From: an uncultured Planctomycetia bacterium
GTDB lineage: Bacteria; Omnitrophota; Gorgyraeia; JABMRJ01
Direction of reading: 5' to 3'
Assembly: GCA_964556455.1 (NCBI GenBank)
Contig: CAZKWI010000002.1
Coordinates: 1 to 51,446 of the forward strand
DNA: 51,446 bases
Below, one piece after another: positions 15,672-48,391 of this stretch. Numbering within the stretch: the stretch's first letter is position 1; each line of letters starts with the position of its first letter. The notes under the pieces were generated by a model, which did not search any database, was not told the origin of the DNA, and saw only the letters and a program-made list of their open reading frames with translations. A program made the translations under genes and the position numbers.

Positions 15672-15672
15672 C

Positions 15673-19584: not shown

Positions 19585-19597
19585 GGAAGGGCGGGGT

Positions 19598-24024: not shown

Positions 24025-25382
24025 CAGGCCCCTAATCTCAGTAAATAGCCCGGTAATTTACCGCGGTTGTACTTCCATAAAAGATATAATATTCTCTTCT
24101 TCCTCTCGAACCGCGAAAGGCCACGCGGCATGACCCTGCTGCCAAAATCCTCCACGGTGGCGCACGCCTTTTCAAGCGCCTGGACTCTCTGGCTTTCACT
24201 GAACTCCTCGGTCTCAAAGACAGGCCTTATGCTGTCGGCTCCGAAATGCACGCCTTCTTTATAGTCTCTTAAGGCCCTGCCGTTCTTTCGCGCCCATTCG
24301 CTGGCCTCTGTCCCGGGATACGGCACAAAGAGGCCGAACTCCGCGCCGTCAAGCCTTGTCCTTTTTATAAATTCCAGGGATTTCCCTAATTTCCGTAAAT
24401 TGTCGCCGGGAAGCCCTATGATAAAGAAACCTTTAACTTTCATGCCCGTCTTTTTCAGTATGCCGATGCTTCTTTCGATGTCATCCAGAGTAACTCCCTT
24501 TTTCAGCGCCCTGAAGACCTCTTCATCCGCGCTTTCTACCCCTATCGAAACCTCTTCGCAGCCGGCCTCCTTCATCAATCCCGCCAGCTCCTCGTCCAGG
24601 GGGGCAGCCCTTATGCCGTTCGGGCAACTCCACCTTAGATCGATCCTTTCCTTGATGAGCAGTGAAGATATGGCCTTGGCGCGTTTAATATTAAAGGCAA
24701 AATTATCATCGATTATCTCAAATTTCCTTATGCCGTATTTGTCTTTGGCGTATATTAATTCTCCGATCACGTTTTCCGGCGACCTTCCGCGCCATCCCGC
24801 GCCGCTTAAGGGCGGTACGGTGCAGAATGTGCATTTAAAAGGGCACCCCCTGGAGGTTACAAGGGGGTATTTCTCTTTAAGCAGCGCGTCTGTGGGTTCG
24901 GGGCAAAAAAAATCATACGAAGGAAATTTCAGGCCATCCAGGCCGTCCAATGATTCCTGCCTCTGTAATTTAGGGCCGTCTTTCTTTCCGCTCTTTAATT
25001 CTTTTAAGGAGCGGGGCAGTGATATTTCCGCGTCCCCTGAGAATAAAAGATCAAAATGGCCATTTTCGCTCAAGAATTCCCGGTGATACAGGGTAATGTG
25101 AGGCCCGCCCGCCATAAGCAGGGCGTCGCCGCATTCGCCCTTTAAGCGCCTGGAGATGCGGGCGGAGGACAGGGCGGTTGCCGATTTAACCGAAAAACCT
25201 ATCGCTTCCGGGCCATAATCCCGGGCCAATTTCACCAATTTATCATCGGAAATCTGGAAATTATTGGCATCTATGACCTTTGTTTCAAAGGCCTCATCAA
25301 GCAGAGCCGAAGAGAGATAGGCCAGCCCGTTGTTTAAAACCCCCTTCTGCCATCCGGGGGGATCGATCAATAAAACTCTCAT
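24024..25382 (-). CDS. B12-binding-domain radical SAM enzyme
   Basis: MRVLLIDPPGW...MAGGPHITL is the B12-binding-like module. VTSRGCPFKCTFCTV carries the CX3CX2C cluster. Start taken at M17 (25382), which removes the overlap with 25397..26236; the ORF track gives 25430. Confidence 0.8.
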   Translation of the reverse strand: MRVLLIDPPGWQKGVLNNGLAYLSSALLDEAFETKVIDANNFQISDDKLVKLARDYGPEAIGFSVKSATALSSARISRRLKGECGDALLMAGGPHITLYHREFLSENGHFDLLFSGDAEISLPRSLKELKSGKKDGPKLQRQESLDGLDGLKFPSYDFFCPEPTDALLKEKYPLVTSRGCPFKCTFCTVPPLSGAGWRGRSPENVIGELIYAKDKYGIRKFEIIDDNFAFNIKRAKAISSLLIKERIDLRWSCPNGIRAAPLDEELAGLMKEAGCEEVSIGVESADEEVFRALKKGVTLDDIERSIGILKKTGMKVKGFFIIGLPGDNLRKLGKSLEFIKRTRLDGAEFGLFVPYPGTEASEWARKNGRALRDYKEGVHFGADSIRPVFETEEFSESQRVQALEKACATVEDFGSRVMPRGLSRFERKKRILYLLWKYNRGKLPGYLLRLGA

Positions 25383-25396
25383 AAATATGCCGTTCC

Positions 25397-26236
25397 TTAT
25401 TTTCTGATTACGCCTATACCACCGCCCCATGATGCCGGAAAAAGTATATGATATTTTCTATCTACCGATTTAGCAAACTCAAAAAAAGCGCTGTTCCATC
25501 TTATATCATGGGCAACAAGCAGGCCCCCTTCCTTAAGGAACGGCCAGGCTATCTTAAACTCATTAAGCATATTCTCGTAACTATGCTCGCTGTCATGTAA
25601 AAATATATCGATAGAGCCAAGGCGTTTTAGCAAAGGCCTTAGAACCTCCCTGGTCAGGCCTATTTTCAACGCCCATCTCTTCCTGAGGCCCTCGGGCACT
25701 GCCCAGCCGCAACTCTTCCCATCGGGCAAATGGGCCGGAGGGACGGAAAGATTCTGTTTTTTATAATCCTGGCATTTAGTTATCAGCTCATCCTCATAAT
25801 TAGGCTTATCTACTGAATGCAAAGTTCCCATGGCATTATTATTTAAGGCGCATAAGATATAGGCTGATGAGATGCCGCTGGCCACCCCGGTCTCGACAAT
25901 TACCTCCGGCTTTATAAGCCGGCATAGTACATATATATACTCCGGCTTCTCGATAGCGCTAACCGCGGATTTTCCTAAATACTCAAGGCAGCTCTTTATG
26001 TGTTCATTGAAGGCATTGTTCGATCTGATCTCGGAGATATATCCTTTGACATTTTTTAAGCCTGCGCCGGATATGCCTTTCAAACAAAACTCATCTCTTT
26101 TTTCTTCCCTGTAAGCCTTGAAAGCTAATTTTTTTGATTTCAGGTACGCTCCCGGCCGGTTTTTCATTGCCATGGCCTTCCTGGCAACATTAAGCAGGCC
26201 GATCCGCTTTAAGATGCTCCTCAACAAATCTCTCAT
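25397..26236 (-). CDS. Class-I methyltransferase-fold protein (Methyltransf_24/CmcI-like)
   Basis: 279 aa. VIVETGVASGISSAYIL (motif I variant) ... IDIFLHDSEHSYENMLNEF ... GGLLVAHDI. Confidence 0.65.
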   Translation of the reverse strand: MRDLLRSILKRIGLLNVARKAMAMKNRPGAYLKSKKLAFKAYREEKRDEFCLKGISGAGLKNVKGYISEIRSNNAFNEHIKSCLEYLGKSAVSAIEKPEYIYVLCRLIKPEVIVETGVASGISSAYILCALNNNAMGTLHSVDKPNYEDELITKCQDYKKQNLSVPPAHLPDGKSCGWAVPEGLRKRWALKIGLTREVLRPLLKRLGSIDIFLHDSEHSYENMLNEFKIAWPFLKEGGLLVAHDIRWNSAFFEFAKSVDRKYHILFPASWGGGIGVIRK

Positions 26237-26278: not shown

Positions 26279-28108
26279 TTAGGTGCTTGATTTTTTTATA
26301 ATTTTTTTAACCCGCCTTAATAACCTGTCGAGAAACCGGCGCGGCGCCGATAGAAAAGCCTTTGGGCGCTTCGGCGGCAAGAGAGGCTTCATATCCTTAA
26401 GAGGCGTGATCTGGTGAAGTATCAGGGGATCGGTCTTTGCAAGCCACGGATATAAGTCTGTGAAATGCTCTGTCAGGTGATCGACATATGCCTTGGCCTT
26501 ACCGAAAGGCGGCCTTGCCTCAACCTTCTCTGTGCAAAAATATATCGGGTCCCGGACTATCATCCCCTCGCGGGTCTTTAGCTCATCATAACCAACTTCT
26601 TCCGCGTACTGCCTGGACAATCCGATGCATATGAGCCTTAAGGAGCATTTTTTACAGGGCGGGCCCTGTAAATTTCTCTTTCGGCTTTCTATTAAGCTAT
26701 AATAAAGATGATCGAACTCCCCTCTCAATTTATGGCCGGGCTTGTTATCCCACCCGCCCTGATAACATGACTGGTGAAAATTCAACATATATTCTTCGAA
26801 GCCTTCGTAAGGGCAAATCGGTGAGAAAGAGATATGCGGAGCCAAACCCGCTGAAATAAGAATTGAAGCCGCTTTTTTTATGTACGGCGCGGCGTCTATG
26901 TGGCGAACGTAGAAATTCGGCAACTTATGCGATTTCCATGAATCCTCGGGAATATATAACAGGAGATAAACACCCCCTGCCGGTTTTATGTCTAATAATT
27001 CCCGCGCGAAATCCGGCAAATGAGTGTGGTTAACACTTGTAACCACGGTGTTAATTTTTAAAGGTATGCCGGCGCCTATGGCGTTATCTATGCTTTTTCT
27101 TATCGCCTTATACGCTCCGGGCTTATTAGTTACATAATCGTGATCTTTCTGGTTACCGTGAAAAGCGAATGTAAGGTATTCTATCCCTGCGGCTTTCAGG
27201 TCCTTTGCGAATGCTTTGGAAAGATTTTGGCCGTTTGTGTCGATCGTGGTTGCAAGACCGATCCGTGTGCAATATTCTACCAATTGAACGATTCGGGGAT
27301 GGCACGTAGGCTCTCCGCCTAGGATGTCCAAATGAGTATTGCCGTAAAACCTTCTGTTCGAGCTGCATTCCTTCTTGAGATCCCGCAAGGATCGAAAAAC
27401 TTTTTTCGGCGAATACCGGTAAAAACAGAAGAGGCAGCTTAAATTACATGCCTTACCTACATATAAGCGGCCTCGATGCGTCAGCTCTCTTACGCCGAAC
27501 CATTTATCCCTGAAATAAAGTGAATTTTTCTCAACAGCGCCTCTATGTAAATGCTCGTGACGGACGGTTGATTTTCCGCAATAAAGAAGGGTGAACCCGT
27601 TTTTTCTTATCTGCATGGAGAAATCACAATCTTCCCACTGGCTTCCTCCGTATTTGATATCGAAAACGCACTTATTCAGTATGTTTTTGTTATACAGGCT
27701 GCAGGTTCCGGAGAGCAGCTCAGCCGCCCTTATATAATCATACTGCCCCTTGTCCTCTTCGCCTCCGCCCACAACTGTGTTTTTGCCTGAAAGAGTTGTG
27801 AAAACCTTCTCTGCGGCGAAGATCCTGCCGTCGGGATACAGGACCTTCGGCTGGATCTGTCCTATACCGTCATCCCTGCATTCTAATAAGCGATCGAGCC
27901 AGCCGGGGTCTACCGCAACATCGTCATCCATCATCACAAACCAGTCAGACTTAAGTTTAGATAAAGCGATATTCCTGTTCTCGGCCGCGCTTCTTTTTCC
28001 CTCGACCACTATAATGTTATAATCCCGGGTATGGTCTTTGATGCTCTTTATACAGCCGTCAAGAGCGGAAGTCCTTTCATAACATATTATCGCGATATCT
28101 ACCGTCAT
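26279..28108 (-). CDS. Fusion: GT2 glycosyltransferase plus radical SAM enzyme with Cys-rich (SPASM/twitch-like) C-terminal region
   Basis: 609 aa. aa 1-~205 is GT2 (DIAIICYERTSAL...FVMMDDDVAV). C221-x3-C225-x2-C228 lies in GKACNLSCLFCFY, with DILGGEPT and a TIM-barrel-like core to aa ~395. Further Cys include C485-x2-C488-x5-C494 (PPCKKCSLRLIC). Confidence 0.8.
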   Translation of the reverse strand: MTVDIAIICYERTSALDGCIKSIKDHTRDYNIIVVEGKRSAAENRNIALSKLKSDWFVMMDDDVAVDPGWLDRLLECRDDGIGQIQPKVLYPDGRIFAAEKVFTTLSGKNTVVGGGEEDKGQYDYIRAAELLSGTCSLYNKNILNKCVFDIKYGGSQWEDCDFSMQIRKNGFTLLYCGKSTVRHEHLHRGAVEKNSLYFRDKWFGVRELTHRGRLYVGKACNLSCLFCFYRYSPKKVFRSLRDLKKECSSNRRFYGNTHLDILGGEPTCHPRIVQLVEYCTRIGLATTIDTNGQNLSKAFAKDLKAAGIEYLTFAFHGNQKDHDYVTNKPGAYKAIRKSIDNAIGAGIPLKINTVVTSVNHTHLPDFARELLDIKPAGGVYLLLYIPEDSWKSHKLPNFYVRHIDAAPYIKKAASILISAGLAPHISFSPICPYEGFEEYMLNFHQSCYQGGWDNKPGHKLRGEFDHLYYSLIESRKRNLQGPPCKKCSLRLICIGLSRQYAEEVGYDELKTREGMIVRDPIYFCTEKVEARPPFGKAKAYVDHLTEHFTDLYPWLAKTDPLILHQITPLKDMKPLLPPKRPKAFLSAPRRFLDRLLRRVKKIIKKSST

Positions 28109-28168: not shown

Positions 28169-29413
28169 TCAATCCGTCTTCCATGAAATATCGGGCGGCT
28201 GATACACGCCGCAAAATTCCGGTCTGAGATATTTATCTTTGGGTATTTTTATATAAATTTTACTTTCTCTGTGTACAGCCAAAGAGATACTGCCCTTTAT
28301 GCTCCTGATCTCTATATCAAAAACAAGATCTCCGGGAGTTAAATTATGGTTTTTTACGGTTATCTCGACATGGCCCTTTTTGGTTTTAGGAAAAAAACCG
28401 CCCATATGGGAAAAGACCCCGAAACATTTGCATCCAACATCCTTTCTATAGACGACCAAAGAGAATGTTATATCATCGAGTGGATAATCAAGGCAATCGT
28501 AATCGAAGCCGGCGGTTATGGGCTCCTGATATTTCAGTTGCAGCTCATCGTCCGCCTCCCTGGCCCGCGCGATCTTTACGTTAGTAAGCAAGGCGCCGTC
28601 CGTTGGCTTGGGCTGCGGTACGCCTAACCCGCCGTACCAGCCTGTCTTCTTGGTCGCCTCGCGCTCGAGGATCTCCACCGCATCGATCGGCTCACCGTCC
28701 GCGATAAGCCTGCCTTCTTTGAGCAAAATCGCCCTGTCGCAGTAATTTTTAATGTGGTGCAGATTATGCGATACCATTATTACGGTGGCATTGCTTTTTT
28801 TCAGACCGTTCATATACTCAAGGCATTTTTGCTGGAATACGATATCCCCTACCGCTAATATTTCGTCTACCAATAAAATATCAGGGTCCAGATGCGCGGC
28901 TATGGCAAATCCCAGACGTATAAGCATTCCGGAAGAATACCTCTTTACCGGCGTATCGGCGAACTTTTTATAATCGCTGAACCCGTATCCCGCGAATTCT
29001 ATGATAGAATCGAATTTTTTATCGATCTCTTTTTTGGCCATCCCCATGATAGCGCCGTTCAGATAAATATTCTCCCTGCCCGTAAACTGCGGATTAAAAC
29101 CCGCCCCGGCGGCGATAAGACAGGAGACCCGCCCTTTTTTGATTATACTCCCTTTGTTAGGCCGCATTATGCCCGCAATAAGTTTCAGCGTGGTCGTCTT
29201 TCCCGCGCCGTTGGGGCCTATAATACCCAGGATCGCGCCTTTTTCAACTTTGAAAGACACTTCCTTGAGCGCCTGGAAGGTCATATCTGCCGCATGCGGG
29301 GTTCTTCCGACCAACCGGCCTAAGACGTTGGGGATGGCGTCGCGCAAGGCCGCAGCCCTTTCGCCGCGGTTGAAACTCTTCCATATATCGTTAAACTCGA
29401 TAGCGTATTCCAT
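28169..29413 (-). CDS. wzt: Polysaccharide ABC exporter ATP-binding protein with C-terminal Wzt_C-like carbohydrate-binding domain
   Basis: 414 aa. Walker A GPNGAGKTT, signature YSSGMLIRLGFA and Walker B ILLVDEILAVGD. There is a ~150-aa beta-rich extension after the NBD (..ITFSLVVYRKDVGCKCFGVFS..VEITVKNHNLTPGDLVFDIEI..). 1-nt overlap with the permease gene. Confidence 0.85.
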   Translation of the reverse strand: MEYAIEFNDIWKSFNRGERAAALRDAIPNVLGRLVGRTPHAADMTFQALKEVSFKVEKGAILGIIGPNGAGKTTTLKLIAGIMRPNKGSIIKKGRVSCLIAAGAGFNPQFTGRENIYLNGAIMGMAKKEIDKKFDSIIEFAGYGFSDYKKFADTPVKRYSSGMLIRLGFAIAAHLDPDILLVDEILAVGDIVFQQKCLEYMNGLKKSNATVIMVSHNLHHIKNYCDRAILLKEGRLIADGEPIDAVEILEREATKKTGWYGGLGVPQPKPTDGALLTNVKIARAREADDELQLKYQEPITAGFDYDCLDYPLDDITFSLVVYRKDVGCKCFGVFSHMGGFFPKTKKGHVEITVKNHNLTPGDLVFDIEIRSIKGSISLAVHRESKIYIKIPKDKYLRPEFCGVYQPPDISWKTD

Positions 29414-30195
29414 TAAATATTCTCGGCAAAGAGATGTTCCGTTCTATGAAATAAGAATGCTCCTATAAAAAATATAACTGCAGATATAACTATCGCGGGT
29501 AAGAGCTGGCCTATCTGCGGAAATTCGCCTTTCAGTATAAGCGTCCGGTACGCGTTCAATATAGGTGTCATGGGGTTAAGCATCAGTACCTTCTGCAGCG
29601 CGGGCGAATCCACGCTGATAGGATAGATGACAGAGGTTACAAACATCCACAGGATTATAACCACATCGAATATATACTTAACGTCGCGAAAAAATAAGTT
29701 TCCCATGGACAAAAGCAGGGAGAGGCCCATCATTAAAACAACCTGAATTAGAAGGATAAACGGGAATAGGAGCGCGGTGGCATGGAAGGGTATATGATAA
29801 AAAAACATCAATCCTACCAAAACAAGAGAGGCCACGCAAAGATCTATGAATCTTGCCAGTATTATCGCCAAAGGAAAGACCTCGCGGGGAAAATATATCT
29901 TGGTTATCAGGTCGGCGTTTCCCACCAGGCTGTTCGTGGCTGATGTCAATGAACCGGCAAAAAAAGTCCATGGCAGGATGCCGCAATAGGCGAATATAGG
30001 ATAAGGGATCTCGCCCGTGGATATTTTTGTAATCTTGGAAAAGACAAATGTAAAGATAAGCATCATGGCCAGCGGCGTAAAAACAGCCCAGGCCATCCCC
30101 AGCAGGGCCTGCTTATAGCGCACCTTTACTTCCTTGATGACCAGCCTCGAAAGCAATTCCCTGTATTGAAAAATCTCCTTTAGGGCAGTGGACAT
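29413..30195 (-). CDS. wzm: ABC-2 type polysaccharide exporter permease
   Basis: 260 aa with 6 hydrophobic segments. The N-terminus YRELLSRLVIKEVKVRYKQALLGMAWAVFTPL is typical of Wzm/KpsM/TagG. Confidence 0.8.
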   Translation of the reverse strand: MSTALKEIFQYRELLSRLVIKEVKVRYKQALLGMAWAVFTPLAMMLIFTFVFSKITKISTGEIPYPIFAYCGILPWTFFAGSLTSATNSLVGNADLITKIYFPREVFPLAIILARFIDLCVASLVLVGLMFFYHIPFHATALLFPFILLIQVVLMMGLSLLLSMGNLFFRDVKYIFDVVIILWMFVTSVIYPISVDSPALQKVLMLNPMTPILNAYRTLILKGEFPQIGQLLPAIVISAVIFFIGAFLFHRTEHLFAENI

Positions 30196-30235: not shown

Positions 30236-30958
30236 TCAGTCCTTTTCAGTATAGTCATAATAGTAATAATACGGATGCAGGCTTCTCATTTCCACCCTGT
30301 TAAATATCACCCCCAGGATGTGGGCTTTGGCGTTATTGAGCAGAGTCATGGCTCTCTGCACCGCGTCCCGGGGTGTCCGTTCCGCCATAATTACCAGGAG
30401 GACGCCGTCAACCAATGATCCTATAATAGTGGCGTCGGTCACAGCCAGTATGGACGCGCAATCGAATATGAACGTATCAAAATACCCCTTAATGTCTTCC
30501 AGCAGTTTCTCCATTTTATTTGAACCGATTAATTCTGACGGGTTCGGCGGTATTGAACCGCTGGTAATAATGCTTAAGTTCTCTATGCCTGACGGCTTTA
30601 GCGCCTTCTCCCAGCTTATTTTTCCGGTCAAGATTTCGGTCAGGCCCGGCGCTTTATCCAAACCGAAGATATTATGAAGCGTCGGTCTTCTCATATCGGT
30701 ATCGACCAGAAGTACGTTCCTGCCTATCTCGGCTATGGTTATCGCTAAATTCGCCGTAGTGATCGTCTTTCCTTCGCTCGGCCGGGAACTGGTGATAAGT
30801 ATCTTTCTTCCTTTCTGGGGCAGATTGGCATATTCTATATTCGTACGCAGGATGCGGTATGCTTCTGCCTCGGGTGATTTCGGGTCATAGTGAACGATCA
30901 ACCTGCTTTTAAGATCAGAGAGGGCCTCTTTAGGTCCCCTTTTTTTCCTTTCCGCCAT
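30236..30958 (-). CDS. BY-kinase (CpsD/CapB-type cytoplasmic tyrosine autokinase)
   Basis: 240 aa. Walker A SSRPSEGKT, Walker A' LLVDTDMRRP and Walker B-like FIFDCASIL. C-terminal tyrosine cluster HPYYYYYDYTEKD (30251..30271). Confidence 0.85.
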   Translation of the reverse strand: MAERKKRGPKEALSDLKSRLIVHYDPKSPEAEAYRILRTNIEYANLPQKGRKILITSSRPSEGKTITTANLAITIAEIGRNVLLVDTDMRRPTLHNIFGLDKAPGLTEILTGKISWEKALKPSGIENLSIITSGSIPPNPSELIGSNKMEKLLEDIKGYFDTFIFDCASILAVTDATIIGSLVDGVLLVIMAERTPRDAVQRAMTLLNNAKAHILGVIFNRVEMRSLHPYYYYYDYTEKD

Positions 30959-32496
30959 TATCCCCTCTTTTTTTTCTTTCTTTCGATAAATTCGTTTAAT
31001 GTCTTTGTTATTTGTTTGCGTTTCAAATTAATTATCTCCAGGAACTGTTTGCGCCTTTCTTTCTCCTCCCTGGTCATTATCCTGGGAATAACGCCGATTA
31101 CCGGCAGAGCCGTGTACAGCGTTACGTCCTGGATCGTCTTCAAAGACATGTCCATATGCTCTTCTATAAAGGCCGCCGCTATTCCCAGAACGATCCCTAA
31201 CAGACATCCTATCAGGATTTCGGATCTTTTCTTCTGGCTGACCGGAGCGGTCGGTTCAGTGGCGCGTCGAACCAGCTTCACCTTTCCTGTTACCATAGCT
31301 ATAGAAATACGGATCCTCTCTATTTTACCCGCCAATGCGTTATAAGTAGCCCTGATAGTGTTAGCCTCCCGCTTCAGGCGTACCAGCTTGGTGTCTTTAT
31401 TTATCACATCCCTGACATTTGAGTAATACTCCTCGATCAGATCCATCAGGGAAGCTTCCCTGACATTCGCGCTGCTTATCTCTATCTCCAATTGCAAGAT
31501 ATTTTTGATCCGGTCTTGATATACGGTCCAGGGATCCAGAACCGCTTTCTCAACAAGTACAACCTTGCCTGTTTCCTCGCTCAGTACCTCTTTGGTCTCA
31601 TCTATCCTTTCCTGTAATTCAATGACACTGGGGTGCTTCTCGGTATATTCTCTGAGCAAAAGAGAGCGCTCTACCTCGAGATCTATCAATTTCTCCCTGA
31701 GCTTTTCTATCACAGGACTTTTGGTCTTTGTTATTGAGGGCACAATGCCCAGCTCAAGCTTAGCCAGCTCTCCCCTCAATACGTTTAACTGCGCTTCGGC
31801 AATTTGCCGTTTCAGTTTGGTATCAATATATTGTTTTTCTAATCCGCCTACCCTGCCTATAGCCGGGTCCGCGACCTGGCCCACATCCGTTTTGTACCCA
31901 GACAGGGCTTCCTCTGTTTTTATTAACTTTTCCTTAAAAACCTCCAATTGTTCTTCTATATATTTAGCGGCAGAACGGGTTTCTTTCGTTAATTCTTTAA
32001 CGCTTTGAACTACAAAGACCTCGGCTGCGGCATTTGCTATATACATCGCCTTTTTAGGGTTATCGGCTATGGCCTTTACCTGCAATAAATTTGTATTTTC
32101 TATCTTAGCGGCCGAGACACTATTTTGGATACTGGCTATTGTCGATGGCAGTTCTGACCGCGCGGCATACTCTCCTATCCTCTTTGAGGCTCGGGCAGCC
32201 TTTATGCTTAAAGTCTTGGCAACCTTTTCCGCAAACTGAGGGCTTTCAAATATTCTAAGTTGAGTATCCATTACATCCGCGGGCACGTGCATAATAATGC
32301 CTTTTAAGAATTGGGAGGCGGCCGCAGGTTTTTCCAGCATTACTGTCGCGGTAGCGCTATAAAGAGTGGGGCTTTTTGGAGCGAAGATAGCGCTGGAGAG
32401 TGTTACCGATACTATAGCCAGGATCACGATCCATTTTCGCCTCTGAATGACCGATAAATAATCGCGTAAGCCTACGTCTCTCTCTTCCTGCCTCAT
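30958..32496 (-). CDS. Polysaccharide co-polymerase (Wzz/GumC-type, PCP-2b-like membrane adaptor of the BY-kinase)
   Basis: 512 aa. N-terminus LRDYLSVIQRRKWIVILAIVSVTLSSAIF (Wzz motif plus TM1). Long coiled-coil periplasmic region. TM2 ILIGCLLGIVLGIAAAFI, then LPVIGVIPRI and a basic tail ..ERKKKKRG. Confidence 0.8.
   Translation of the reverse strand: MRQEERDVGLRDYLSVIQRRKWIVILAIVSVTLSSAIFAPKSPTLYSATATVMLEKPAAASQFLKGIIMHVPADVMDTQLRIFESPQFAEKVAKTLSIKAARASKRIGEYAARSELPSTIASIQNSVSAAKIENTNLLQVKAIADNPKKAMYIANAAAEVFVVQSVKELTKETRSAAKYIEEQLEVFKEKLIKTEEALSGYKTDVGQVADPAIGRVGGLEKQYIDTKLKRQIAEAQLNVLRGELAKLELGIVPSITKTKSPVIEKLREKLIDLEVERSLLLREYTEKHPSVIELQERIDETKEVLSEETGKVVLVEKAVLDPWTVYQDRIKNILQLEIEISSANVREASLMDLIEEYYSNVRDVINKDTKLVRLKREANTIRATYNALAGKIERIRISIAMVTGKVKLVRRATEPTAPVSQKKRSEILIGCLLGIVLGIAAAFIEEHMDMSLKTIQDVTLYTALPVIGVIPRIMTREEKERRKQFLEIINLKRKQITKTLNEFIERKKKKRG
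30967..30973 (-). other. In-frame A_AAA_AAG heptamer (dnaX-type -1 slippery sequence) within an A8 run, 6 nt upstream of the PCP stop codon
   Basis: Minus strand reads ..GAA AGA AAG AAA AAA AAG AGG GGA TAA TGG.. in the PCP frame. The -1 frame after the heptamer reads GAG GGG ATA ATG GCG.., which is open and in phase with the BY-kinase ATG (30958..30956). Function is untested and the match could be coincidental lysine-codon usage. Confidence 0.25.
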
Positions 32497-34002
32497 CTAT
32501 TCCTCTCGCTCATCTTCCGATTGGCCTGCTTTTTTTCTCTTCCTGTATAATCTCGTCGGCATCCTCTTCTTTTTTTCTCTTTTAAGATACTTGTCTACCT
32601 CCCGGCTGATCTTTTCTCCTTTGCCTATTTCTTTTTGGACAGCCTCTTCGGCTTTTTCTTCCGTTAAGATGCGGGGGGTTATGAATATCATTAATTCTGT
32701 CTTTTCCACGACATCATTTGTAGTCCTGAATAAAAGGCCCAAGAGCGGTATATCACCGAGAAAGGGGACCTTTTGCACGGTTTTAAGCTTCCTGTCCTGC
32801 AATAATCCCCCTATGATCAGCGTCTTTCCGTCCTTAACGTTCACATGGGTATTTGTTTTGCGTGAGGCCTTTATGGGAATATTTTCTCTTTCTCCCTGCA
32901 CAAACGAGACCTCCGGCTCCAATTCCATATTCACAACATCTCCTTTTCTTATGCGGGGAGTGACCTTGAGAATTACGCCGACATCCACAAAGCTGGTTGT
33001 ATAAACAGCCGTGCCCGCAGAGGTGTTCCCGGTCAGTGTGTTAAACGGGAGCTTGGTCACTATCTCTATCTTTGCTTCTTCTCCATTTTCTACTAAGATC
33101 TTAGGCTGGGCTAAAAGATCTGCTTTGTTCTCTGTAAGCAAAGCGTCGATCACTGAGCTGAAGTCATATTGGTCGATCATTTGACTGATAAAAAGGCTCC
33201 CTCCCGAGGTCAAGGTAGCGAGTCCGATATTAGGTATGAGTGTCCTTAATTCCTCCGCAATTACCGCCCCCTGTGAAACTTTCTCCTGAGTGGTCAATTC
33301 CGTTGATAACGGCGGAATGGTGTTACTTTTATTATAGGTCGCCCCGACAAAATTCGTCCCGCCGATCTTATCTATAAACCACCTTATCCCCAATTCCTTA
33401 TCAATGTCGGCCTTGACCTCTATGATCTGGGCTTCGATCAGGATCTGGCGTTTATCCGGGCCATAGATATCCAATTCCCTGATCACCCTTTCTATCCCCG
33501 CCAAATTGGCCGGGATGTCAGTGGCTATCAATGAATTTGTCACTTCATCAGCATAGATACTGCCTGTTTCCGAAACTACGCCCATAACAGCTTCCCTCAC
33601 GATGGCGGCCTTGGCATAGTTTAAGCTGATCACCCTGGTCGCCTGCGATCCAGACTCTCCTGCCACCCTTACTGTGGTGATCAGGCCTCCTGTCCCTACC
33701 CCTGTCTTTTGAACAGTCACTACCGGTTTTTTAATATACACGGCCAGCCTATCCCGCAGTTCTTTCTCGAGTTTTGGGATCGTATTGCCGGCTGCCTTCA
33801 CTTCTCCGATCAGGGGGAATACGATATAGCCCGCCTGGTCCAGATTAAGCACCCGGTCCAGGTCTGCCTGTCGTTTCAGGCGTATCTCAACAGTGTCTCC
33901 CGGTTTTAAAATTTCCTCTTCCGCCATAACCCCCAAAGTGAATATGCTCAGGGTCAATGCTGAAAGGATTAAAACAAATACCCTTGTCTTTTGCGCTATC
34001 AT
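32497..34002 (-). CDS. Outer-membrane chimera: signal peptide, Wza-type Poly_export (PES) domain, Secretin_N-like domain, secretin domain, basic tail
   Basis: 501 aa. Signal peptide ..LSIFTLGVMA. aa 31-97 LKPGDTVEIRL...LDQAGYIVFPLIGEVKAAGNTIPKLEKELRDRL..YIKKPVVTVQ matches the Poly_export pattern. aa 121-177 VISLNYAKAAIVREAV...ADEVTNSLIATDIPANLAGIERVIRELD is an N1-type secretin domain. aa ~186-446 ILIEAQIIEV...VPFLGDIPLLGLLFR...ELMIFITPRIL is the secretin C-domain signature. The last ~55 aa are Lys/Arg/Glu-rich. Confidence 0.75.
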   Translation of the reverse strand: MIAQKTRVFVLILSALTLSIFTLGVMAEEEILKPGDTVEIRLKRQADLDRVLNLDQAGYIVFPLIGEVKAAGNTIPKLEKELRDRLAVYIKKPVVTVQKTGVGTGGLITTVRVAGESGSQATRVISLNYAKAAIVREAVMGVVSETGSIYADEVTNSLIATDIPANLAGIERVIRELDIYGPDKRQILIEAQIIEVKADIDKELGIRWFIDKIGGTNFVGATYNKSNTIPPLSTELTTQEKVSQGAVIAEELRTLIPNIGLATLTSGGSLFISQMIDQYDFSSVIDALLTENKADLLAQPKILVENGEEAKIEIVTKLPFNTLTGNTSAGTAVYTTSFVDVGVILKVTPRIRKGDVVNMELEPEVSFVQGERENIPIKASRKTNTHVNVKDGKTLIIGGLLQDRKLKTVQKVPFLGDIPLLGLLFRTTNDVVEKTELMIFITPRILTEEKAEEAVQKEIGKGEKISREVDKYLKREKKKRMPTRLYRKRKKAGQSEDEREE

Positions 34003-34025: not shown

Positions 34026-34571
34026 TTAATCGCGGGGCTCGTATTCTTTATAATCTATTTCTAGGTCTTCTTCCATTTTCTGCCTGTATGTTTCGCCGTG
34101 GTCTTCCTGATATTGAGTAACAACATCTTCTTTCAGGTGCTCTTCCCATTTGTTCCCGTATTCTTCTTTATAAAGTTCTATCCCCTCGTCTTCATAGTCC
34201 TCTTTGAGTTTTTTCTTATATCTGGAACCATATTTTTTTTTATACTCTGCAATGACTTCCTCTTTCATTTTTTCCTTGTAGCCTTCTCCGTGCTCTGCCT
34301 TGTAATAAGCTTCGGTCTCTTCTCCAAAGTCTTCTTTGAGTTTCTTGCCCCATTTATCTCCATATCTTTCTTTGTATATAGATATAAGATTTTCTTTGGC
34401 GTCATTTACGATCTTCTTTTTGTAGGTGCCGAAAAAATTGATGACGCCCGGTTTGGTTACATCAGACCCAACGGCGCCGGTGTCCGCCATTTCTTTTTGA
34501 ATGCTCAACCTGTTTATCTGCCTAAAGCCGCCTTTTTTCTTGCCTGTATCAAGATTGATCAATTTCCCCAT
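34026..34571 (-). CDS. Tyr/Lys/Glu-rich repeat protein of unknown function (possibly secreted; CDS may extend to 34631 with an ATC start)
   Basis: 181 aa from the first ATG. Five or six degenerate ~20-24-aa repeats with core Y-K-x-x-[YH]-G-x-x-[WY]-x-x-[KH]-[LM]-K-E-[DE] (YKERYGDKWGKKLKED / YKAEHGEGYKEKMKEE / YKKKYGSRYKKKLKED / YKEEYGNKWEEHLKED / YQEDHGETYRQKMEED). I recognise no family. See the finding on the upstream in-frame signal-peptide-like extension. Confidence 0.6.
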   Translation of the reverse strand: MGKLINLDTGKKKGGFRQINRLSIQKEMADTGAVGSDVTKPGVINFFGTYKKKIVNDAKENLISIYKERYGDKWGKKLKEDFGEETEAYYKAEHGEGYKEKMKEEVIAEYKKKYGSRYKKKLKEDYEDEGIELYKEEYGNKWEEHLKEDVVTQYQEDHGETYRQKMEEDLEIDYKEYEPRD

Positions 34572-34702: not shown

Positions 34703-37384
34703 TTATTCCTGCTTTTTTAAATTGATCTCTTCTTTTTCGCCGTCTCCGTCTTTTAATGTGATACCCTTTGAAGATATATCCACAACCTCTTTGCCGTCAA
34801 TGAGATCCCCTACTTCTAAAATCTTGCTGTTTACAACAGCCGCCGCTTTATCGTCTTTTCCGATAATTCCATATATCAGCATAAGGTCTTGCTCATCCTC
34901 TCCCATCTGCTCTTTTTGCGCTTTCTCAAGCTCTGCCCTGGCCTTATCAATTCCTTCTTTTGCCTCCGTATTGTAAACATCCAGCGCTAAGACATCTCTC
35001 CATGCGTCTATAGCCTGTTGGTATTGACCGTTATCAAAATAGTCTTTAGCGGTTTTTAAAGGCGCTTCGATCTTTTGTTCTCTGGTAATCTCTCTTCCGG
35101 CCTGTTGAATTGCCAGGGTCTCTCCTGCAGGTCCTTGAATGTTCTCTTTTTCCGAACCAGCTTCTATTTTGGCGGCTTGCGCGACTTCTTTTATCTCACC
35201 AGGCCGCACAACTTCTTCTGTCTCGACAGCCCGCACAATCTCTTTTTTCTTTTTCGCTTCAACTTGCGCGGCTTCCATCTTCTTCTTCAGCAGCTCCTTC
35301 ATTGCAGCCGCGCGCTCTTCTTCTGCCAATATTGCGTCTACCTCCTCCAGCTGCTTCCTTGCTCCTCTGGCCCATTCCATGTCAGCAGAACGATTTAATG
35401 CCACTGCCCGAAACATCTTTCCCGCCTCTTCGTATTGTCCTAGCCTTTTAAAACAAATACCCATTTGATAATGTTCGAACCCCAGAGAAATGCCCTCCTG
35501 GAGATCTAACGCAGTTCTATATATTTGAATAGCTGCGTGAGGGCTATTCTGCCGCTGATAGCAATCGGCTAATGCGTAAAATGCCTCCATTAAAAACGGG
35601 CTATCCGGATATTTGCGGACTAACTTCTGGAATTCCTCAATTGCCCTGTCTAATAAACCCTGTTTTAAATAAATTGTGGCTATCCAATACTGGGCATAAC
35701 CGGCTTTGTCGCTAAGAGGATGGCTTAAAATCACCCTTTTGTATTCTTTGATCGCCTCTCCTTCCATGCCCAGCATTTCAAAACAACTGCCTATATAATA
35801 TTGCGCGTTTGCGCTCTGCTTTTTATCGGGGAACCTTTTAATAAATTCTCTATATCTGTTGATGGCCTTCTCATACTTCTTCGCTGCGTGCAGCTCCGAT
35901 GCTGCCTGGTACTGCACCACCGGGTCCCCTTTTCTGTGCAAAAAGCGCACCGCTGATCTTGATGCGATAATTACCATTATCCCAAGAACGATCATTTTAA
36001 ATATAGCCCATCTCTTTTCCTGCGTAATTGGCTCTTTTTTGCGCGGGCTTAATTTTTCCTTCTCCCGGGCTTCGGTTTTTTCTTTTTCAGGATCATCTCT
36101 TGTTTCTGCCAGCGCTGCTTCGTGAGGTTTTATTATCTTTTGGACCTTATTTACCCTGTCCCGCTTCTCAACCTGCGAGATCTTATCGCCCGGAGCGAAG
36201 AGGGTTAATATAAAGTCCACACCGGTCTCTACAAATTTAGGTTCTTTTAAACCATTCTCCTGAGCTGCCTTTTTTATGCGCCTGACACCCGTACCCAGCT
36301 TCTCGATATACCCCTCCATAAGCAGGAGGGCCTCAACGATTATCTTATTTCTTGAGTATTGCGTATATTCCATATTTTCCACTGTTACAGGGCCGGGCAA
36401 TCCTCCGGGTGTATATATCTCTATACGATCATCGAACATAAAGATCCTGATACACGCCTCCTTAAAATTATAATCGCGGTGCACTATGGCGTTAGCGACC
36501 GCCTCGCGGACAGCGACCAGAGGATACTCAGGAAGGTCCAGCCTCTTCAAGCCTTCAAACATCCCGCTTAACTTCATATGCCTGACCACAAACTGCTGCG
36601 CTTCGTCGATCATCTCAGGTATGGTCGCCCTCAGCTCTTTTCTATCTATTATCGAACCAGCTTTATCCGTACCCTTAAATTTTGCCATGTTTACGCTCGA
36701 GGACCACAGAAATCGCTGCGGATCCTTACCAAAGAGCAATAACCCCGCGGTAGAAGGCAGGAGGCTTCCATTGCGCCTGACCAGAATCCCTATATTCTCC
36801 AATAAGATCTTTGTGGAGATATCTTTTTCTGATTTAAATCTTTTCTTTCTCTTTTCGATATAATCCTCTATCTTAGCGGAGTCTAGATCGTTATATGTGG
36901 CCTTCTCCACTGGCAGGCTATCGCCCCCTACCCCTTTCTTAAAAAGCTTCCGGCCTGGCGACATAGATTGTATCTCGCCAGAGGCAGCCACGCGGACATG
37001 CTGGCCATCCCTGATATAACAGTGGCCCTCTGCATAATAAGGTTTATTTTTCCCCGCTTTAACAGAAACAGCCACTATATTTTTCCTGCCGACCTTCCTT
37101 ATGGCAACTTCGGGAATAACAGGCGGACTGCAACGGTCCTGCCCGATTTTAACCATGTCCTTCTCTATAGACTTTGAGCCGTATATATTGACGCCGACGA
37201 TTGTTTTTTCTTTAGGGTCGGCCCCGATAATTATCAACCCGCCGCTGGTGTTGGCAAAGCTGACCATTGTCCTTGCCAGGCTTAAAATATCGTTTTCTTT
37301 GACCGGTAGATCCGGCCTGAGCTCAACGTCCCGCCTGGGCCCCTGCTTCACCATCTCCTCTATCTGATAGCCTGTCAGATTCAC
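34703..37384 (-). CDS. Bitopic membrane protein: cytoplasmic AlbA_2 (Schlafen-type) and HATPase_c_4-like domains, one TM, periplasmic TPR repeats, coiled coil, GspB/PilP-like C-terminal domain
   Basis: 893 aa, GTG start with AGGAG 6 nt upstream. aa 1-~125 ..LSLARTMVSFANTSGGLIIIGAD.. is AlbA_2. aa ~285-395 ..YPLVAVREAVANAIVHRDY...IEIYTPGGLPG...GTGVRRI.. is HATPase_c_4-like. TM at aa 459-479, WAIFKMIVLGIMVIIASRSAV (35948..36010), preceded by basic residues. TPR-like repeats at aa ~493-670. Lys/Glu coiled coil. aa ~833-888 LMLIYGIIGKDDKAAAVVNSKILEVGDLIDGKEVVDISSKGITLKDGDGEKEEINL (34721..34888). Confidence 0.7.
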   Translation of the reverse strand: MNLTGYQIEEMVKQGPRRDVELRPDLPVKENDILSLARTMVSFANTSGGLIIIGADPKEKTIVGVNIYGSKSIEKDMVKIGQDRCSPPVIPEVAIRKVGRKNIVAVSVKAGKNKPYYAEGHCYIRDGQHVRVAASGEIQSMSPGRKLFKKGVGGDSLPVEKATYNDLDSAKIEDYIEKRKKRFKSEKDISTKILLENIGILVRRNGSLLPSTAGLLLFGKDPQRFLWSSSVNMAKFKGTDKAGSIIDRKELRATIPEMIDEAQQFVVRHMKLSGMFEGLKRLDLPEYPLVAVREAVANAIVHRDYNFKEACIRIFMFDDRIEIYTPGGLPGPVTVENMEYTQYSRNKIIVEALLLMEGYIEKLGTGVRRIKKAAQENGLKEPKFVETGVDFILTLFAPGDKISQVEKRDRVNKVQKIIKPHEAALAETRDDPEKEKTEAREKEKLSPRKKEPITQEKRWAIFKMIVLGIMVIIASRSAVRFLHRKGDPVVQYQAASELHAAKKYEKAINRYREFIKRFPDKKQSANAQYYIGSCFEMLGMEGEAIKEYKRVILSHPLSDKAGYAQYWIATIYLKQGLLDRAIEEFQKLVRKYPDSPFLMEAFYALADCYQRQNSPHAAIQIYRTALDLQEGISLGFEHYQMGICFKRLGQYEEAGKMFRAVALNRSADMEWARGARKQLEEVDAILAEEERAAAMKELLKKKMEAAQVEAKKKKEIVRAVETEEVVRPGEIKEVAQAAKIEAGSEKENIQGPAGETLAIQQAGREITREQKIEAPLKTAKDYFDNGQYQQAIDAWRDVLALDVYNTEAKEGIDKARAELEKAQKEQMGEDEQDLMLIYGIIGKDDKAAAVVNSKILEVGDLIDGKEVVDISSKGITLKDGDGEKEEINLKKQE

Positions 37385-37398
37385 AAAAACTCCTTTGC

Positions 37399-38208
37399 CT
37401 ATTGTTCGCTTTCCGCGTTCTTCTCCGCGTCTACCTTAAGCCAATATTCTATTTTATCCAGCTTTTCATAAAAATCATCCAGCGTGGCTTTGCGCTTTAG
37501 AACAACATCCCGTTCAGATGGTGCGTCCGGCTGCGATCTCTCTTTACTCACGGTGGTGCTTATATATCCAAAAGTTATCCCTGCCAATACCGATAAGGCT
37601 ATGACTATGAAATAAGTACTTGTACACACATCCTTAGCTCTGTGCAGGATAAACTCATAGAAAGAGGAATATAAAGACGCCATCTGCCTATCCAGGCTCT
37701 TTCCTGTTTTCCCGAGATTTTCGGTCCTGGTTATTACATCTTTTTTGAGAGAATTTAATTTCTGTATTATCGCTTCGCTCTGTGTAAGCTCTCCGCTAAA
37801 GACCTTCTCTAAACCCTCGCTGAACAGGACAGGCCTGGCCCTGGTATCTATAAGGAGGTGCTTGATCAATGCTTTAATATATTTTAAATCGAATGGTTTG
37901 GTAATATAGTCGAAGACGCCCAGATCGGTCGCCTCCTTTACGGACTTCATTTCTCCGTAACCGGTTATTATTACATTTATTACTGAACTATCGCTCTTTC
38001 TAATTCTGCGTATCGTCTCAACGCCGTCTATCCCGGGCATCTTCAGGTCAACCAGGGTCAGATCGACCTTCTTGTTCTTGACTATTTTTATTGCTTTTTC
38101 TCCGCTTGCCGCGGTTAAAACCTTATAGCCTTCTTTTTTTAAAACCTTGGATAAGATTTTTCTAACCCCGGCTTCATCATCTATTATTAAAATACGCGGT
38201 GCGGTCAT
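37399..38208 (-). CDS. Response regulator (REC domain) with C-terminal coiled segment and single TM anchor; no DNA-binding output domain
   Basis: 269 aa. ILIIDDEAGVRKIL...DLTLVDLKMPGIDG (acceptor Asp54)...ITKPFD. TM at aa ~197-219, STYFIVIALSVLAGITFGYISTT (37552..37620), followed by a ~50-aa charged tail. Confidence 0.85.
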   Translation of the reverse strand: MTAPRILIIDDEAGVRKILSKVLKKEGYKVLTAASGEKAIKIVKNKKVDLTLVDLKMPGIDGVETIRRIRKSDSSVINVIITGYGEMKSVKEATDLGVFDYITKPFDLKYIKALIKHLLIDTRARPVLFSEGLEKVFSGELTQSEAIIQKLNSLKKDVITRTENLGKTGKSLDRQMASLYSSFYEFILHRAKDVCTSTYFIVIALSVLAGITFGYISTTVSKERSQPDAPSERDVVLKRKATLDDFYEKLDKIEYWLKVDAEKNAESEQ

Positions 38209-38235: not shown

Positions 38236-38511
38236 TTATTGTTCAACTGCGGGTTTCCCTCTATTGGTCTTCTCCGCCATCAAGCTCATCCAGTCATCCA
38301 AAATTTTCTTTTTAAACCGCCAGCGCCCGCCAATTTTAAAAGCCGGGATCTTTCCCTGTTTGACCAATTTATACACGGTTATCTTGTGAATAGCCAAATA
38401 TGCAGCGACCTGAGCGGTATCCAGCAATTCCGGCGTTTCAGGATTCTCTTTCATTTTTCTGCTCTCTTTCTGCCTTATTTTTATCCATCCCCTTTGCGAT
38501 CCAACTGTCAA
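38236..38511 (-). CDS. HTH_17 (excisionase/MerR-like) small DNA-binding protein, copy 2
   Basis: LLDTAQVAAYLAIHKITVYKLVKQGKIPAFKIGGRWRFKKKILDDWM. The likely real start is the internal MKENPETPE (38454), which shortens the overlap with copy 1. Confidence 0.75.
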   Translation of the reverse strand: MTVGSQRGWIKIRQKESRKMKENPETPELLDTAQVAAYLAIHKITVYKLVKQGKIPAFKIGGRWRFKKKILDDWMSLMAEKTNRGKPAVEQ

Positions 38512-38919: not shown

Positions 38920-40197
38920 TCAGCCGGCAAGCTGTTCCGCCGGCAGCTCTATCCTGAATTCAGCTCCTTTGCCCGGCTTGCTATCCACCGTTATGTTACC
39001 CTTATGTTCGGTAATTATCCTCTGGCAGATAGAGAGTCCTAAACCAAGGTTTCCCGGGCGCCTGGTAGTAAAAAACGGATCGAATATCTTGTCTATTTGT
39101 TCGGGGGCGATACCAGGGCCTGAGTCTTTGAATTCGATCAATATAGACTTACTGTTTTTTATGTTTACTGTTGTTATGGTCAATCTTCCACCGCGAGGCA
39201 TCGCATATTTGGCATTTATTATTATATTCAAAAAGACCTCTTTAAGCTCATCAGGGTCAATAATCGTCCCGGGTAAAGAAGGGCTTAGGTTCTTAACGAT
39301 CTTTATCCCCTTCAGTGATATCTGGTATTTTACAAGGTTCAAGACCTCCATTATAATACTATTTACATCAATGGAAGTTCCTTCGTATTTAGACGGGCGG
39401 CTGTAGCGCAGGAGCCTCTGAATGATCTTTAAGCAGCGTTTACTTGCCTTGTCTATCTCTATCAGCTCATCCATCATGGGATCGTTCTTTGAGGTGTTGG
39501 AGATTAAATATTGAACATTGGCTGAAATCACGGCTAAGGGATTATCCAGCTCGTGCGCAATGCCCGCGGAGAGCTCTCCCAGGGTAGTCATTTTTTCATA
39601 TATTATCAGCTGTTTTCGCGTCTCCACGCATTTACGGCGAGCGCGTTCTGCCTCTTCATACAACCTCACGTGCCAGATAGCTATAGCCGCCTGGCTGGCG
39701 AGAAAGGAAATAAATTTCAGGTCGCCCTTGTCAAATTGAGATTCAGAGCGCAGGCTGTTTATATTAAGCACCCCGATGACCTTATGTTCTATCTTTAAAG
39801 GCACCGATATGGCCGATTTAATCTCGTTTTTTTTGGCGAATTTATAAAATCTCTTGTCTTTTCTCAAATTTCCTATAAGAAGAGTGCTCTCTCCTCTTTT
39901 GGCTACCCAGCCGGCTATTTCATCGCCGATTTTTATCCTTTTTGTTCTCATGATCTCCTTATCCAGGCCGACAGCCGCTTCTATGCCCAAGGTATGGGTC
40001 TTCTCATCCAATAACATCAAAGAACCTGTATTGCCGCCGGAGGCCTCGAGTGAAGTCTCCAGTATTTGCTGCAGTATTTTTTTAAGCTCATACGCGGTCA
40101 ACATCCTGGCGGCGATATCCAGCAGATCGTCCAGCCCTTCCAGGAAGGTCTTATCAGCGATCTTTCTTCTTTTGTTCTCTTTTGCCCGTTTATTCAT
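38920..40197 (-). CDS. Cytoplasmic sensor histidine kinase (GAF, HisKA, HATPase_c); no TM segment
   Basis: 425 aa. GAF-like region ILETSLEASGGNTGSLMLLDEKTHTL...IGVLNINS. H-box LGELSAGIAHELDNPL. N-box LNIIINAKYAM. G-boxes FKDSGPGI and GLGLGLSI. GAGGAG lies 6 nt upstream of the ATG. Confidence 0.85.
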   Translation of the reverse strand: MNKRAKENKRRKIADKTFLEGLDDLLDIAARMLTAYELKKILQQILETSLEASGGNTGSLMLLDEKTHTLGIEAAVGLDKEIMRTKRIKIGDEIAGWVAKRGESTLLIGNLRKDKRFYKFAKKNEIKSAISVPLKIEHKVIGVLNINSLRSESQFDKGDLKFISFLASQAAIAIWHVRLYEEAERARRKCVETRKQLIIYEKMTTLGELSAGIAHELDNPLAVISANVQYLISNTSKNDPMMDELIEIDKASKRCLKIIQRLLRYSRPSKYEGTSIDVNSIIMEVLNLVKYQISLKGIKIVKNLSPSLPGTIIDPDELKEVFLNIIINAKYAMPRGGRLTITTVNIKNSKSILIEFKDSGPGIAPEQIDKIFDPFFTTRRPGNLGLGLSICQRIITEHKGNITVDSKPGKGAEFRIELPAEQLAG

Positions 40198-48372: not shown

Positions 48373-48391
48373 CTTTTAATTAAAGGCCCTC

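Follow-up and report, generated by a model that had tools for sequence, protein, structure and literature searches.

A secretin fused to a Wza-type polysaccharide export domain: a candidate outer-membrane polysaccharide translocon

The stretch of DNA analysed here (the window) comprises 51,446 nucleotides of contig CAZKWI010000002.1 from an uncultured bacterium of the Omnitrophota lineage. One gene on its minus strand (34002..32497, ATG start) encodes a protein of 501 residues that carries the defining core domain of two families: the polysaccharide export sequence (PES) domain of OPX proteins (outer-membrane polysaccharide exporters) such as Wza, and the core domain of the secretins. A first-pass annotation made from the sequence had placed such a chimera at 32497-34002. 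Pfam domains and predicted folds confirm the chimera and its coordinates, and the strand is now corrected to minus. We read the protein as an outer-membrane translocon in which a PES ring docks on a polysaccharide co-polymerase (PCP) and the pore is formed by the secretin, in place of the helix barrel of Wza or the porin Wzp; we put the probability of this reading at roughly 65%.

Domain architecture and predicted structure of the fusion

Three Pfam domains were located in the protein, without overlap and each far above its gathering score. Poly_export (PF02563) occupies residues 30-98 (65 bits, cut-off 28, E 7.1e-18), Secretin_N (PF03958) residues 122-179 (45.4 bits, cut-off 28.2, E 9.8e-12) and Secretin (PF00263) residues 287-446 (163 bits, cut-off 27.5, E 5.7e-48). 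Both the PES-type N-terminal domain and the full secretin C-domain of the first-pass annotation are thus significant. The same scan gave no match at E ≤ 0.01 to STN/N0, SLBB, SLBB_2 or Wza_C, in agreement with the earlier statement that N0/STN, SLBB and the Wza C-terminal helix are missing. The N-terminus holds a single hydrophobic segment, as expected of the proposed signal peptide. There is no cysteine in the protein, thus the signal peptide has no lipobox and the fusion is not a lipoprotein. A ribosome-binding site, AAGGAG, precedes the gene. The parts of the fusion are as follows.

33922..34002, minus strand: signal peptide, residues 1-27 (hydrophobic at 8-26; helix at 3-23 in the AlphaFold2 model)
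33709..33915, minus strand: Poly_export/PES (OPX D1) domain, residues 30-98 (PF02563, Foldseek, phmmer; model confidence 93-98)
33640..33708, minus strand: Gly/Thr-rich linker, residues 99-121, partly disordered in the model (confidence < 50 at residues 103-110)
33466..33639, minus strand: single secretin N domain, N3-equivalent and predicted to be ring-building, residues 122-179 (PF03958; confidence ~93)
32662..33447, minus strand: secretin core (predicted double-walled beta-barrel and gate region), residues 186-447 (PF00263; GspD/PilQ matches)
32497..32661, minus strand: C-terminal extension, residues 448-501 (predicted helix and disordered tail in the AlphaFold2 model), and stop codon

An AlphaFold2 model of the monomer was built on an alignment of 72 sequences (family members, ordinary secretins and OPX proteins). 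The mean predicted local distance difference test (pLDDT) score, the confidence given in the list, is 80, and that of the secretin core is ~90. Low values are confined to linker residues 103-110, residues 210-267 and the last ~20 residues. The model runs from D1 through the linker to the secretin N domain, with no SLBB domain between them. Foldseek comparison of its N-terminal domain with the Protein Data Bank (PDB) gave D1 of Myxococcus xanthus WzaB (9N9A) at 0.7 Å over 70 columns with 36% identity, and D1 of Escherichia coli Wza at 0.9-1.5 Å (2j58, 1.5 Å over 84 columns). The remainder matches the secretins GspD, PilQ, InvG, pIV and RcpA (E 2e-16 to 3e-9; GspD, PilQ and InvG specifically, 1e-16 to 1e-13). 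The comparison of the monomer with Wza and GspD/PilQ that the first-pass annotation had suggested therefore sorts the two halves as it anticipated. Sequence searches of the PDB agree. The PES region finds WzaB (9n9a, phmmer E 2e-7) and the secretin part finds GspD (5wln, E 1.6e-40) and PilQ (6w6m, E 1.3e-36). The secretins matched are 13-15-mers.

The core shares 35-37% identity with GspD/PilQ/MshL-like secretins. The earlier description of one N1-type domain holds as to number; in type, the single N domain aligns with N3 of XcpQ/GspD, directly before the core, and not with N1 specifically. The region of residues 205-268 equals the corresponding part of enterotoxigenic E. coli GspD in length and is probably the lip/cap region; its poorly modelled stretch (210-267) would then be ordered solely in the multimer. 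Likewise, the ~55-residue Lys/Arg/Glu-rich tail reported earlier (K12 R7 E12 in the extension) divides into a helix at residues 448-480, at the position of the secretin S-domain (pLDDT ~85), and a tail with pLDDT < 55, in which disordered low complexity of the K/R/E type is limited to the last ~20 residues. Across the family the tail is unconserved and lineage-specific: one close relative (P0002) lacks it, and three others (P0003-5) have a different helical segment in its place. The case for calling tail and insertion unusual is thus weaker than was claimed.

Conservation within the family is strong in the secretin core at an IGGL motif, at a signature segment (about residues 413-425, VPFLGDIPLLGLLF in the window, with P419, G422 and F425 invariant) and at E436-L437. 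The linker between PES and N domain measures 13-18 residues in every member. Against the more specific NCBIfam models, the C-terminal two thirds lies nearest to GspD (TIGR02517, 226 bits, trusted cut-off 351) and PilQ (TIGR02515, 214.5 bits, trusted cut-off 284), and the PES domain nearest to the XrtA/PEP-CTERM exopolysaccharide export protein (TIGR03027, 51.5 bits, cut-off 180), in each case below the cut-off. The fusion falls outside the canonical OPX proteins, having no SLBB, lipid anchor or helix barrel, and outside the canonical secretins of the type II secretion system (T2SS) and type IV pilus (T4P), having no N0, no cognate machinery and scores beneath the cut-offs.

Gene linkage, distribution and origin

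The fusion gene heads an export module whose remaining members are listed here.

30958..32496, minus strand: PCP, 512 residues, two transmembrane helices (Wzz and GNVR; start abuts the fusion stop)
30236..30958, minus strand: bacterial tyrosine (BY) autokinase, 240 residues (TIGR01007, 199.8 bits, cut-off 108)
29413..30195, minus strand: ABC-2 permease, Wzm/KpsM-like (PF01061; KpsM and galactan Wzm are the top NCBIfam models, both below cut-off)
28169..29413, minus strand: ABC ATPase, Wzt/TagH-like, with a C-terminal extension of ~170 residues (PF00005; TagH/Wzt top in NCBIfam)

The TAG stop of the fusion directly precedes the ATG of the PCP, as had been noted, and the kinase start overlaps the PCP stop by 1 nt. 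The PCP has its transmembrane helices at residues 22-40 and 426-444 and a periplasmic domain of ~385 residues. The ortholog of the ABC ATPase in a related locus (L001) carries Wzt_C. The run of secretin, PCP, BY-kinase, Wzm and Wzt stands as first described. The transcription unit probably starts ahead of the fusion gene itself, since two conserved genes lie upstream on the same strand, the nearer at a distance of 23 nt and the other 131 nt beyond it.

Wherever a locus extends downstream of the fusion, the next gene encodes a PCP (window, L001-L004, L006, L023/24, L025, L026, L027, L029 and L032). This linkage holds across 28-88% protein identity and two deeply diverged subfamilies. In subfamily A the PCP and BY-kinase are split; in subfamily B they are joined in a Wzc-like protein of 750-790 residues (TIGR01007, 183-188 bits, cut-off 108). 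The best specific NCBIfam models for OPX part, PCP and kinase all belong to XrtA/PEP-CTERM exopolysaccharide (EPS) systems (in the window, PCP against TIGR03007 pepcterm_ChnLen, 169.9 bits, cut-off 279; kinase against TIGR03018, 156 bits, cut-off 231).

We scanned every open reading frame of at least 150 residues in the window; all lie on the minus strand. They form a polysaccharide locus with an initiating Bac_transf, some 20 glycosyltransferases (GT) of families GT2, GT4 and GT9, several of them fused to methyltransferases, many further methyltransferases, two Wzy_C proteins, a second, short Wzz, two type-I phosphodiesterases and the Wzm/Wzt pair. No other OPX, Wzp/GfcD-type barrel, Wzx, T2SS or T4P component was found among these frames. 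A polysaccharide rather than a protein or pilus substrate, as the first-pass annotation argued, is the best-supported inference, given the PCP/BY-kinase linkage and the lack of T2SS or pilus operons.

It might nevertheless be that the fusion is an ordinary T2SS/T4P secretin with a swapped N-terminus, serving a pilus or T2SS encoded elsewhere, and that its position beside the PCP reflects co-regulation, for example EPS-pilus coupling. The identity of the core to GspD/PilQ/MshL-like secretins would fit this, as would the name 'GspD/PulD (secretin)' given by JGI to one family member, the sole source name on record. Beside the subfamily-B fusion of L023, a T2SSE ATPase gene and a prepilin-like N_methyl/SBP_bac_10 gene also lie ~4 kb downstream on the opposite strand (15333-19045). 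That pair is, however, the only T2SS-like find near any family member: no T2SS or T4P genes occur in the 51-kb window, in the 21-kb L001 and L029 loci or in L025. The fusion moreover lacks N0/STN, the domain contacting GspC/PilP, its stop abuts or overlaps the PCP start, and the fusion-PCP pair is kept in both subfamilies. We consider this alternative quite unlikely.

The architecture is rare. A word-indexed homology search of 5.8 billion clusters returned only five other proteins with all three domains, 47-88% identical to the window protein; beyond these, the score falls from 417 bits to the 183 bits at which ordinary secretins set in. The N-terminal 96 residues alone, used as query, gave no homologs, as there were no shared words; a profile built from 10 fusions recovered just the five close relatives together with ordinary secretins, the word prefilter being dominated by the core. 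The distant fusions came to light solely through exhaustive phmmer, with residues 25-200 as query against 1.84 billion representatives. Among the best 150 of 2,104 matches, additional proteins were matched in a single stretch spanning PES and N domain, and Pfam gave the same architecture for P0133, P0182, P0190 and P0204 and the partial P0198 and P0206 (470-502 residues). Local hidden Markov model searches found no further fusions among the 284 proteins retrieved up to then, and a metagenome scan added at least two more, in L032 and L033. The census, a lower bound, thus stands at no fewer than 14 distinct fusion proteins, with 28-88% identity. Their 90% clusters hold 1-3 members each, among ~15 billion sequences. 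A pattern scan of one genome per species for 185,579 species found no fusion, only ordinary secretins matching from residue 113 on; the same scan did not recover the window protein itself. The outcome that would have spoken against the first-pass annotation, an architecture that is common and always linked to pilus or T2SS genes, is not what we see; it is rare and linked to PCP/BY-kinase in all loci examined.

Since all sequences come from metagenome assemblies, an OPX and a secretin gene could in principle have been joined by faulty assembly or gene calling. Independent sampling and assembly (JGI, ENA, Logan, NCBI) underlie the 14 distinct sequences. All have an uninterrupted reading frame, domain order and linker length in common, and the exact sequence of the window fusion is present on 4 contigs. 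Long contigs are available in the JGI samples 3300009105, 3300025021 and 3300037657. The recurring intact frame effectively refutes an artefact.

Subfamily A comprises the window protein, P0001-5 and P0133/P0292, and subfamily B P0182, P0190, P0204 and the L032 protein. In a neighbour-joining tree of the N3 and core region the A clade has 84% and the B clade 100% bootstrap support; bootstraps unite A and B exclusively in only 28% of cases, which does not settle a single fusion event. We favour a single origin because domain order and linker length are identical.

The word 'secretin' is absent from a published OPX survey (4,257 proteins, 6,607 genomes) and from the published paper on the three OPX classes, and a combined search for PF02563 and PF00263 gave zero matches. 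A secretin-type OPX translocon is rare and, in the part of the literature covered by our searches, so far undescribed.

Export model and comparison with known systems

Polysaccharides are known to leave through the outer membrane by an alpha-helical barrel (Wza/KpsD), by a short OPX protein with a Wzp-type porin, or by synthase-linked porins. Wza and Wzc are octamers and secretins are 12-15-mers. N0 is the domain by which ordinary secretins contact their inner-membrane platform (GspC/PilP).

In the model that we favour, the secretin core would multimerise after cleavage of the signal peptide to give a gated beta-barrel in the outer membrane, and the N3-like domain would form a periplasmic ring under the barrel that extends the conduit. 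The PES (D1) domains would make up the membrane-distal ring, docked on the periplasmic tip of the PCP from the next gene, whose oligomeric state would be governed by the adjacent tyrosine kinase. With PES in the place of N0, the secretin would be redirected from a T2SS or pilus machine to the PCP machine. A polymer built by the glycosyltransferases, methyltransferases and radical-S-adenosylmethionine (SAM) enzymes of the locus would cross the inner membrane by Wzm/Wzt and/or a Wzy-type route, and would then exit through the PCP-PES-N3-secretin conduit. Domain identities and folds, scarcity and conserved gene linkage are what the analysis shows; ring formation, the docking of PES on the PCP and the polysaccharide cargo we infer.

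Docking has precedents: in the two OPX classes studied by experiment, it is D1 that makes contact with the PCP. The PES motif of Wza touches the tip of Wzc in the cryo-EM complex (PMC13469938), and WzaB binds WzcB via R106-R107 in its alpha1-beta5 loop (PMC12819527). This loop aligns with Y89-I-K-K-P93 of the fusion (K91-K92); across the family P93 is invariant and K91 conserved to at least 90%.

The class-3 OPX system of M. xanthus, WzaB with WzpB and WzcB (PMC12819527, PMC9601211), is the closest in its D1 domain. As there, the OPX part has no outer-membrane helix of its own and a beta-barrel would serve as the pore, the gene sits beside a PCP with BY-kinase, and a basic residue is found at the position of the PCP-binding loop. 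The fusion differs in that its pore would be a secretin multimer covalently joined to D1, where class 3 has a separate 18-stranded monomeric porin, and in having neither D2/SLBB nor a lipid anchor; a stoichiometry of 12-15 rather than 8 would be expected. WzaB must be lipidated at its N-terminus if it is to reach the outer membrane, and for crossing this membrane it depends on a separate porin. The absence of cysteine in the fusion therefore fits a role of the secretin as membrane anchor. Most simply, the secretin would act as anchor and pore at once, since the protein lacks a lipid anchor and a separate porin and has a complete core.

With class-1 Wza of E. coli (PDB 2J58; PMC13469938) the fusion shares PES/D1, the pairing with PCP and tyrosine kinase and, presumably, the terminal role in export across the outer membrane. 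It has none of D2, D3 (SLBB), the Tyr-ring gate, the amphipathic Wza_C helix barrel or the lipobox. With the T2SS/T4P secretins GspD, PilQ and MshL it shares the N3-type ring domain, a complete core and a helix at the S-domain place; unlike them it has no N0/STN, N1, N2 or AMIN, and no GspC/PilP-type partner, ATPase or (pseudo)pilin is encoded in its window locus. It is also smaller (501 residues against ~650 in GspD and ~700 in PilQ). Secretins have been tied to non-protein exopolymer export in the slime 'nozzles' of cyanobacteria and myxobacteria, where slime secretion is reported to need them (PMC12475490), a claim that is recent and still debated. Those are canonical PilQ/GspD, with neither an OPX domain nor a linked PCP gene, whereas in the fusion polypeptide and operon both tie the secretin to the polysaccharide pathway.

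Several observations weigh against the translocon as we picture it. A 12-15-fold PES ring would differ in symmetry and width from known D1 rings, and its docking on an octameric PCP is not guaranteed. A single glycan chain needs far less room than the lumen of a secretin offers. Conservation in the family does not extend to the second basic residue of the WzaB RR motif (K/N/S/H). The inner-membrane route is ambiguous, with Wzm/Wzt and two Wzy_C proteins present and no Wzx found in the window. To these may be added the L023 gene pair described above, the fact that the matches to PEP-CTERM models of NCBIfam fall short of the trusted cut-offs, and the fact that every family member comes from uncultured organisms.

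The wide pore is also the starting point for a different view of the cargo, in which the channel exports proteins or protein-polysaccharide conjugates, for example PEP-CTERM proteins processed by an exosortase, and PES only tethers it to the EPS machinery. Characterised secretins all conduct folded proteins, pili or phage. The setting is of the PEP-CTERM/exosortase type: in L029 genes for the exosortase EpsH (8TM_EpsH, 177 against a cut-off of 105.6) and EpsI lie 9 kb downstream of the fusion, and upstream of the subfamily-B fusions is an ExeA-like AAA_22 ATPase whose top match is an XrtA/PEP-CTERM-associated ATPase. ExeA-type proteins are known from secretin assembly. On the other hand, the window frames of at least 150 residues yielded neither an exosortase nor an obvious gene for a PEP-CTERM substrate, and the fusion is invariantly partnered by a PCP rather than an exosortase. 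The route of PEP-CTERM proteins across the outer membrane is itself not known, which makes the proposal speculative, and we think it unlikely.

Nor need the ring conduct at all: the secretin might merely anchor the PCP complex to the outer membrane or peptidoglycan while the polymer exits via another porin. Class-3 OPX systems do use a separate porin, and our view is limited to 51 kb of the genome. Against this, the family strongly conserves the barrel and gate motifs of the core, and neither the window nor the related loci yielded a Wzp/GfcD-like barrel; we judge a non-conducting ring very unlikely.

Returning to the secretin as polysaccharide pore, a secretin wired to a PCP via an OPX D1 domain would, if the reading is right, be a fourth export solution beside the three known devices. 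We rate at slightly better than even the proposal that it is a fourth structural class of polysaccharide outer-membrane translocon, and a natural 'Rosetta-stone' fusion showing secretins as dedicated conduits for non-protein polymers. The exchange of N0 for D1 would mean that a pore can be re-targeted to another inner-membrane partner and that envelope machines are modular. The fusion also lends independent genomic support to the claim of exopolymer export by secretins (PMC12475490), and it raises the structural question of how a 12-15-fold ring mates with a PCP, which in the known systems is an octamer. Given the wide pore and the exosortase-type neighbourhood, the cargo may be bulkier than one glycan chain. 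In the most radical version, the width of the secretin would suit a bulky product of an exosortase-type pathway, either an EPS-protein conjugate or a bundle of glycans assembled beforehand; were this true, the outer-membrane exit of PEP-CTERM systems would be revealed. As a compact, minimal secretin of 501 residues (one N domain, no N0, no evident pilotin gene), the protein is also a potential model for secretin assembly.

Neighbouring genes and other observations

Two genes precede the fusion on the same strand.

34026..34571, minus strand: K/E/Y-rich repeat protein, 181 residues, directly upstream of the fusion (no Pfam or NCBIfam family)
34703..37384, minus strand: inner-membrane protein, 893 residues (AlbA_2 and HATPase_c_4, one transmembrane helix, TPR, C-terminal beta domain)

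Homologs of the K/E/Y-rich protein (40-73% identity, ~180-200 residues) are found in L001 (9428-9976), L002 (623-1201), L004 (1-468) and L005 (910-1530). The protein always lies directly upstream of subfamily-A fusions and has four to five repeats of the form 'Y-x-E-x-YG-x-KW-x-x-KLKEDF'. An N-terminal hydrophobic segment is present in the L001 and L005 versions and absent in that of the window.

The 893-residue protein is laid out with AlbA_2 and HATPase_c_4 in the cytoplasm, a YbgF/CpoB-like TPR region in the periplasm and a small beta domain at the C-terminus. Upstream of subfamily-A fusions the HATPase_c_4-TM-TPR core is a conserved feature, with orthologs in L001, L025 and L029; the beta domain is confined to the window and L002 and is absent in those three orthologs. 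We considered the C-terminal ~50 residues as a secretin-binding domain like PilP or the GspC homology region. This was not supported: there is only a weak CdsD_C match, the PDB sequence search gave TPR matches only, the single-sequence AlphaFold2 model has a pLDDT of 60 and Foldseek found nothing better than E 0.36. In L005, the locus of the 65%-identical relative, the protein encoded upstream (3-884) terminates with a coiled coil and, after it, a match to STN that is sub-threshold (22.5 bits against 28.4), thus an N0-like domain may be supplied in trans beside the N0-less secretin. Upstream of the subfamily-B fusions, the ExeA-like ATPase is accompanied by a large TPR protein.

The export module of the window is preceded by a response regulator (37399-38208) and a GAF histidine kinase (38920-40197). 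Between them lies a gene for a small HTH_17 (excisionase/MerR-like) DNA-binding protein (38236-38511, minus strand).

The locus also encodes a GT2 domain fused to radical-SAM (26279-28108, minus strand, 609 residues); the L001 ortholog (18046-20121) has SPASM as well. There are, besides, two radical-SAM enzymes of the B12-binding kind (24024-25430, 49313-50815) and no fewer than eight methyltransferase domains. Together these suggest a polysaccharide that is unusually modified, possibly C-methylated. Large multidomain proteins include a GT4-methyltransferase-GT4 protein of 1077 residues (4104-7337, minus strand) and a GT4-methyltransferase protein of 701 residues (11530-13635, minus strand). 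Two type-I phosphodiesterase/nucleotide pyrophosphatase proteins (556 and 583 residues) are encoded in tandem at 42648-44318 and 44406-46157 (minus strand); one is also found in L001. Near the start of the locus a Wzz-only protein (305 residues, two transmembrane helices) lies beside a Wzy_C protein (47014-49309, minus strand), and another Wzy_C gene is located at 2659-4107.

The exhaustive search brought up other odd architectures. Two OPX proteins (P0121, P0134) have 3-5 tandem Poly_export domains with SLBB, and P0264 is a Ser/Thr-kinase-Poly_export fusion. The giant proteins P0122 and P0135 (1,574 and 3,491 residues) show 10-15 matched stretches, the best of them in the Secretin_N part of the query.

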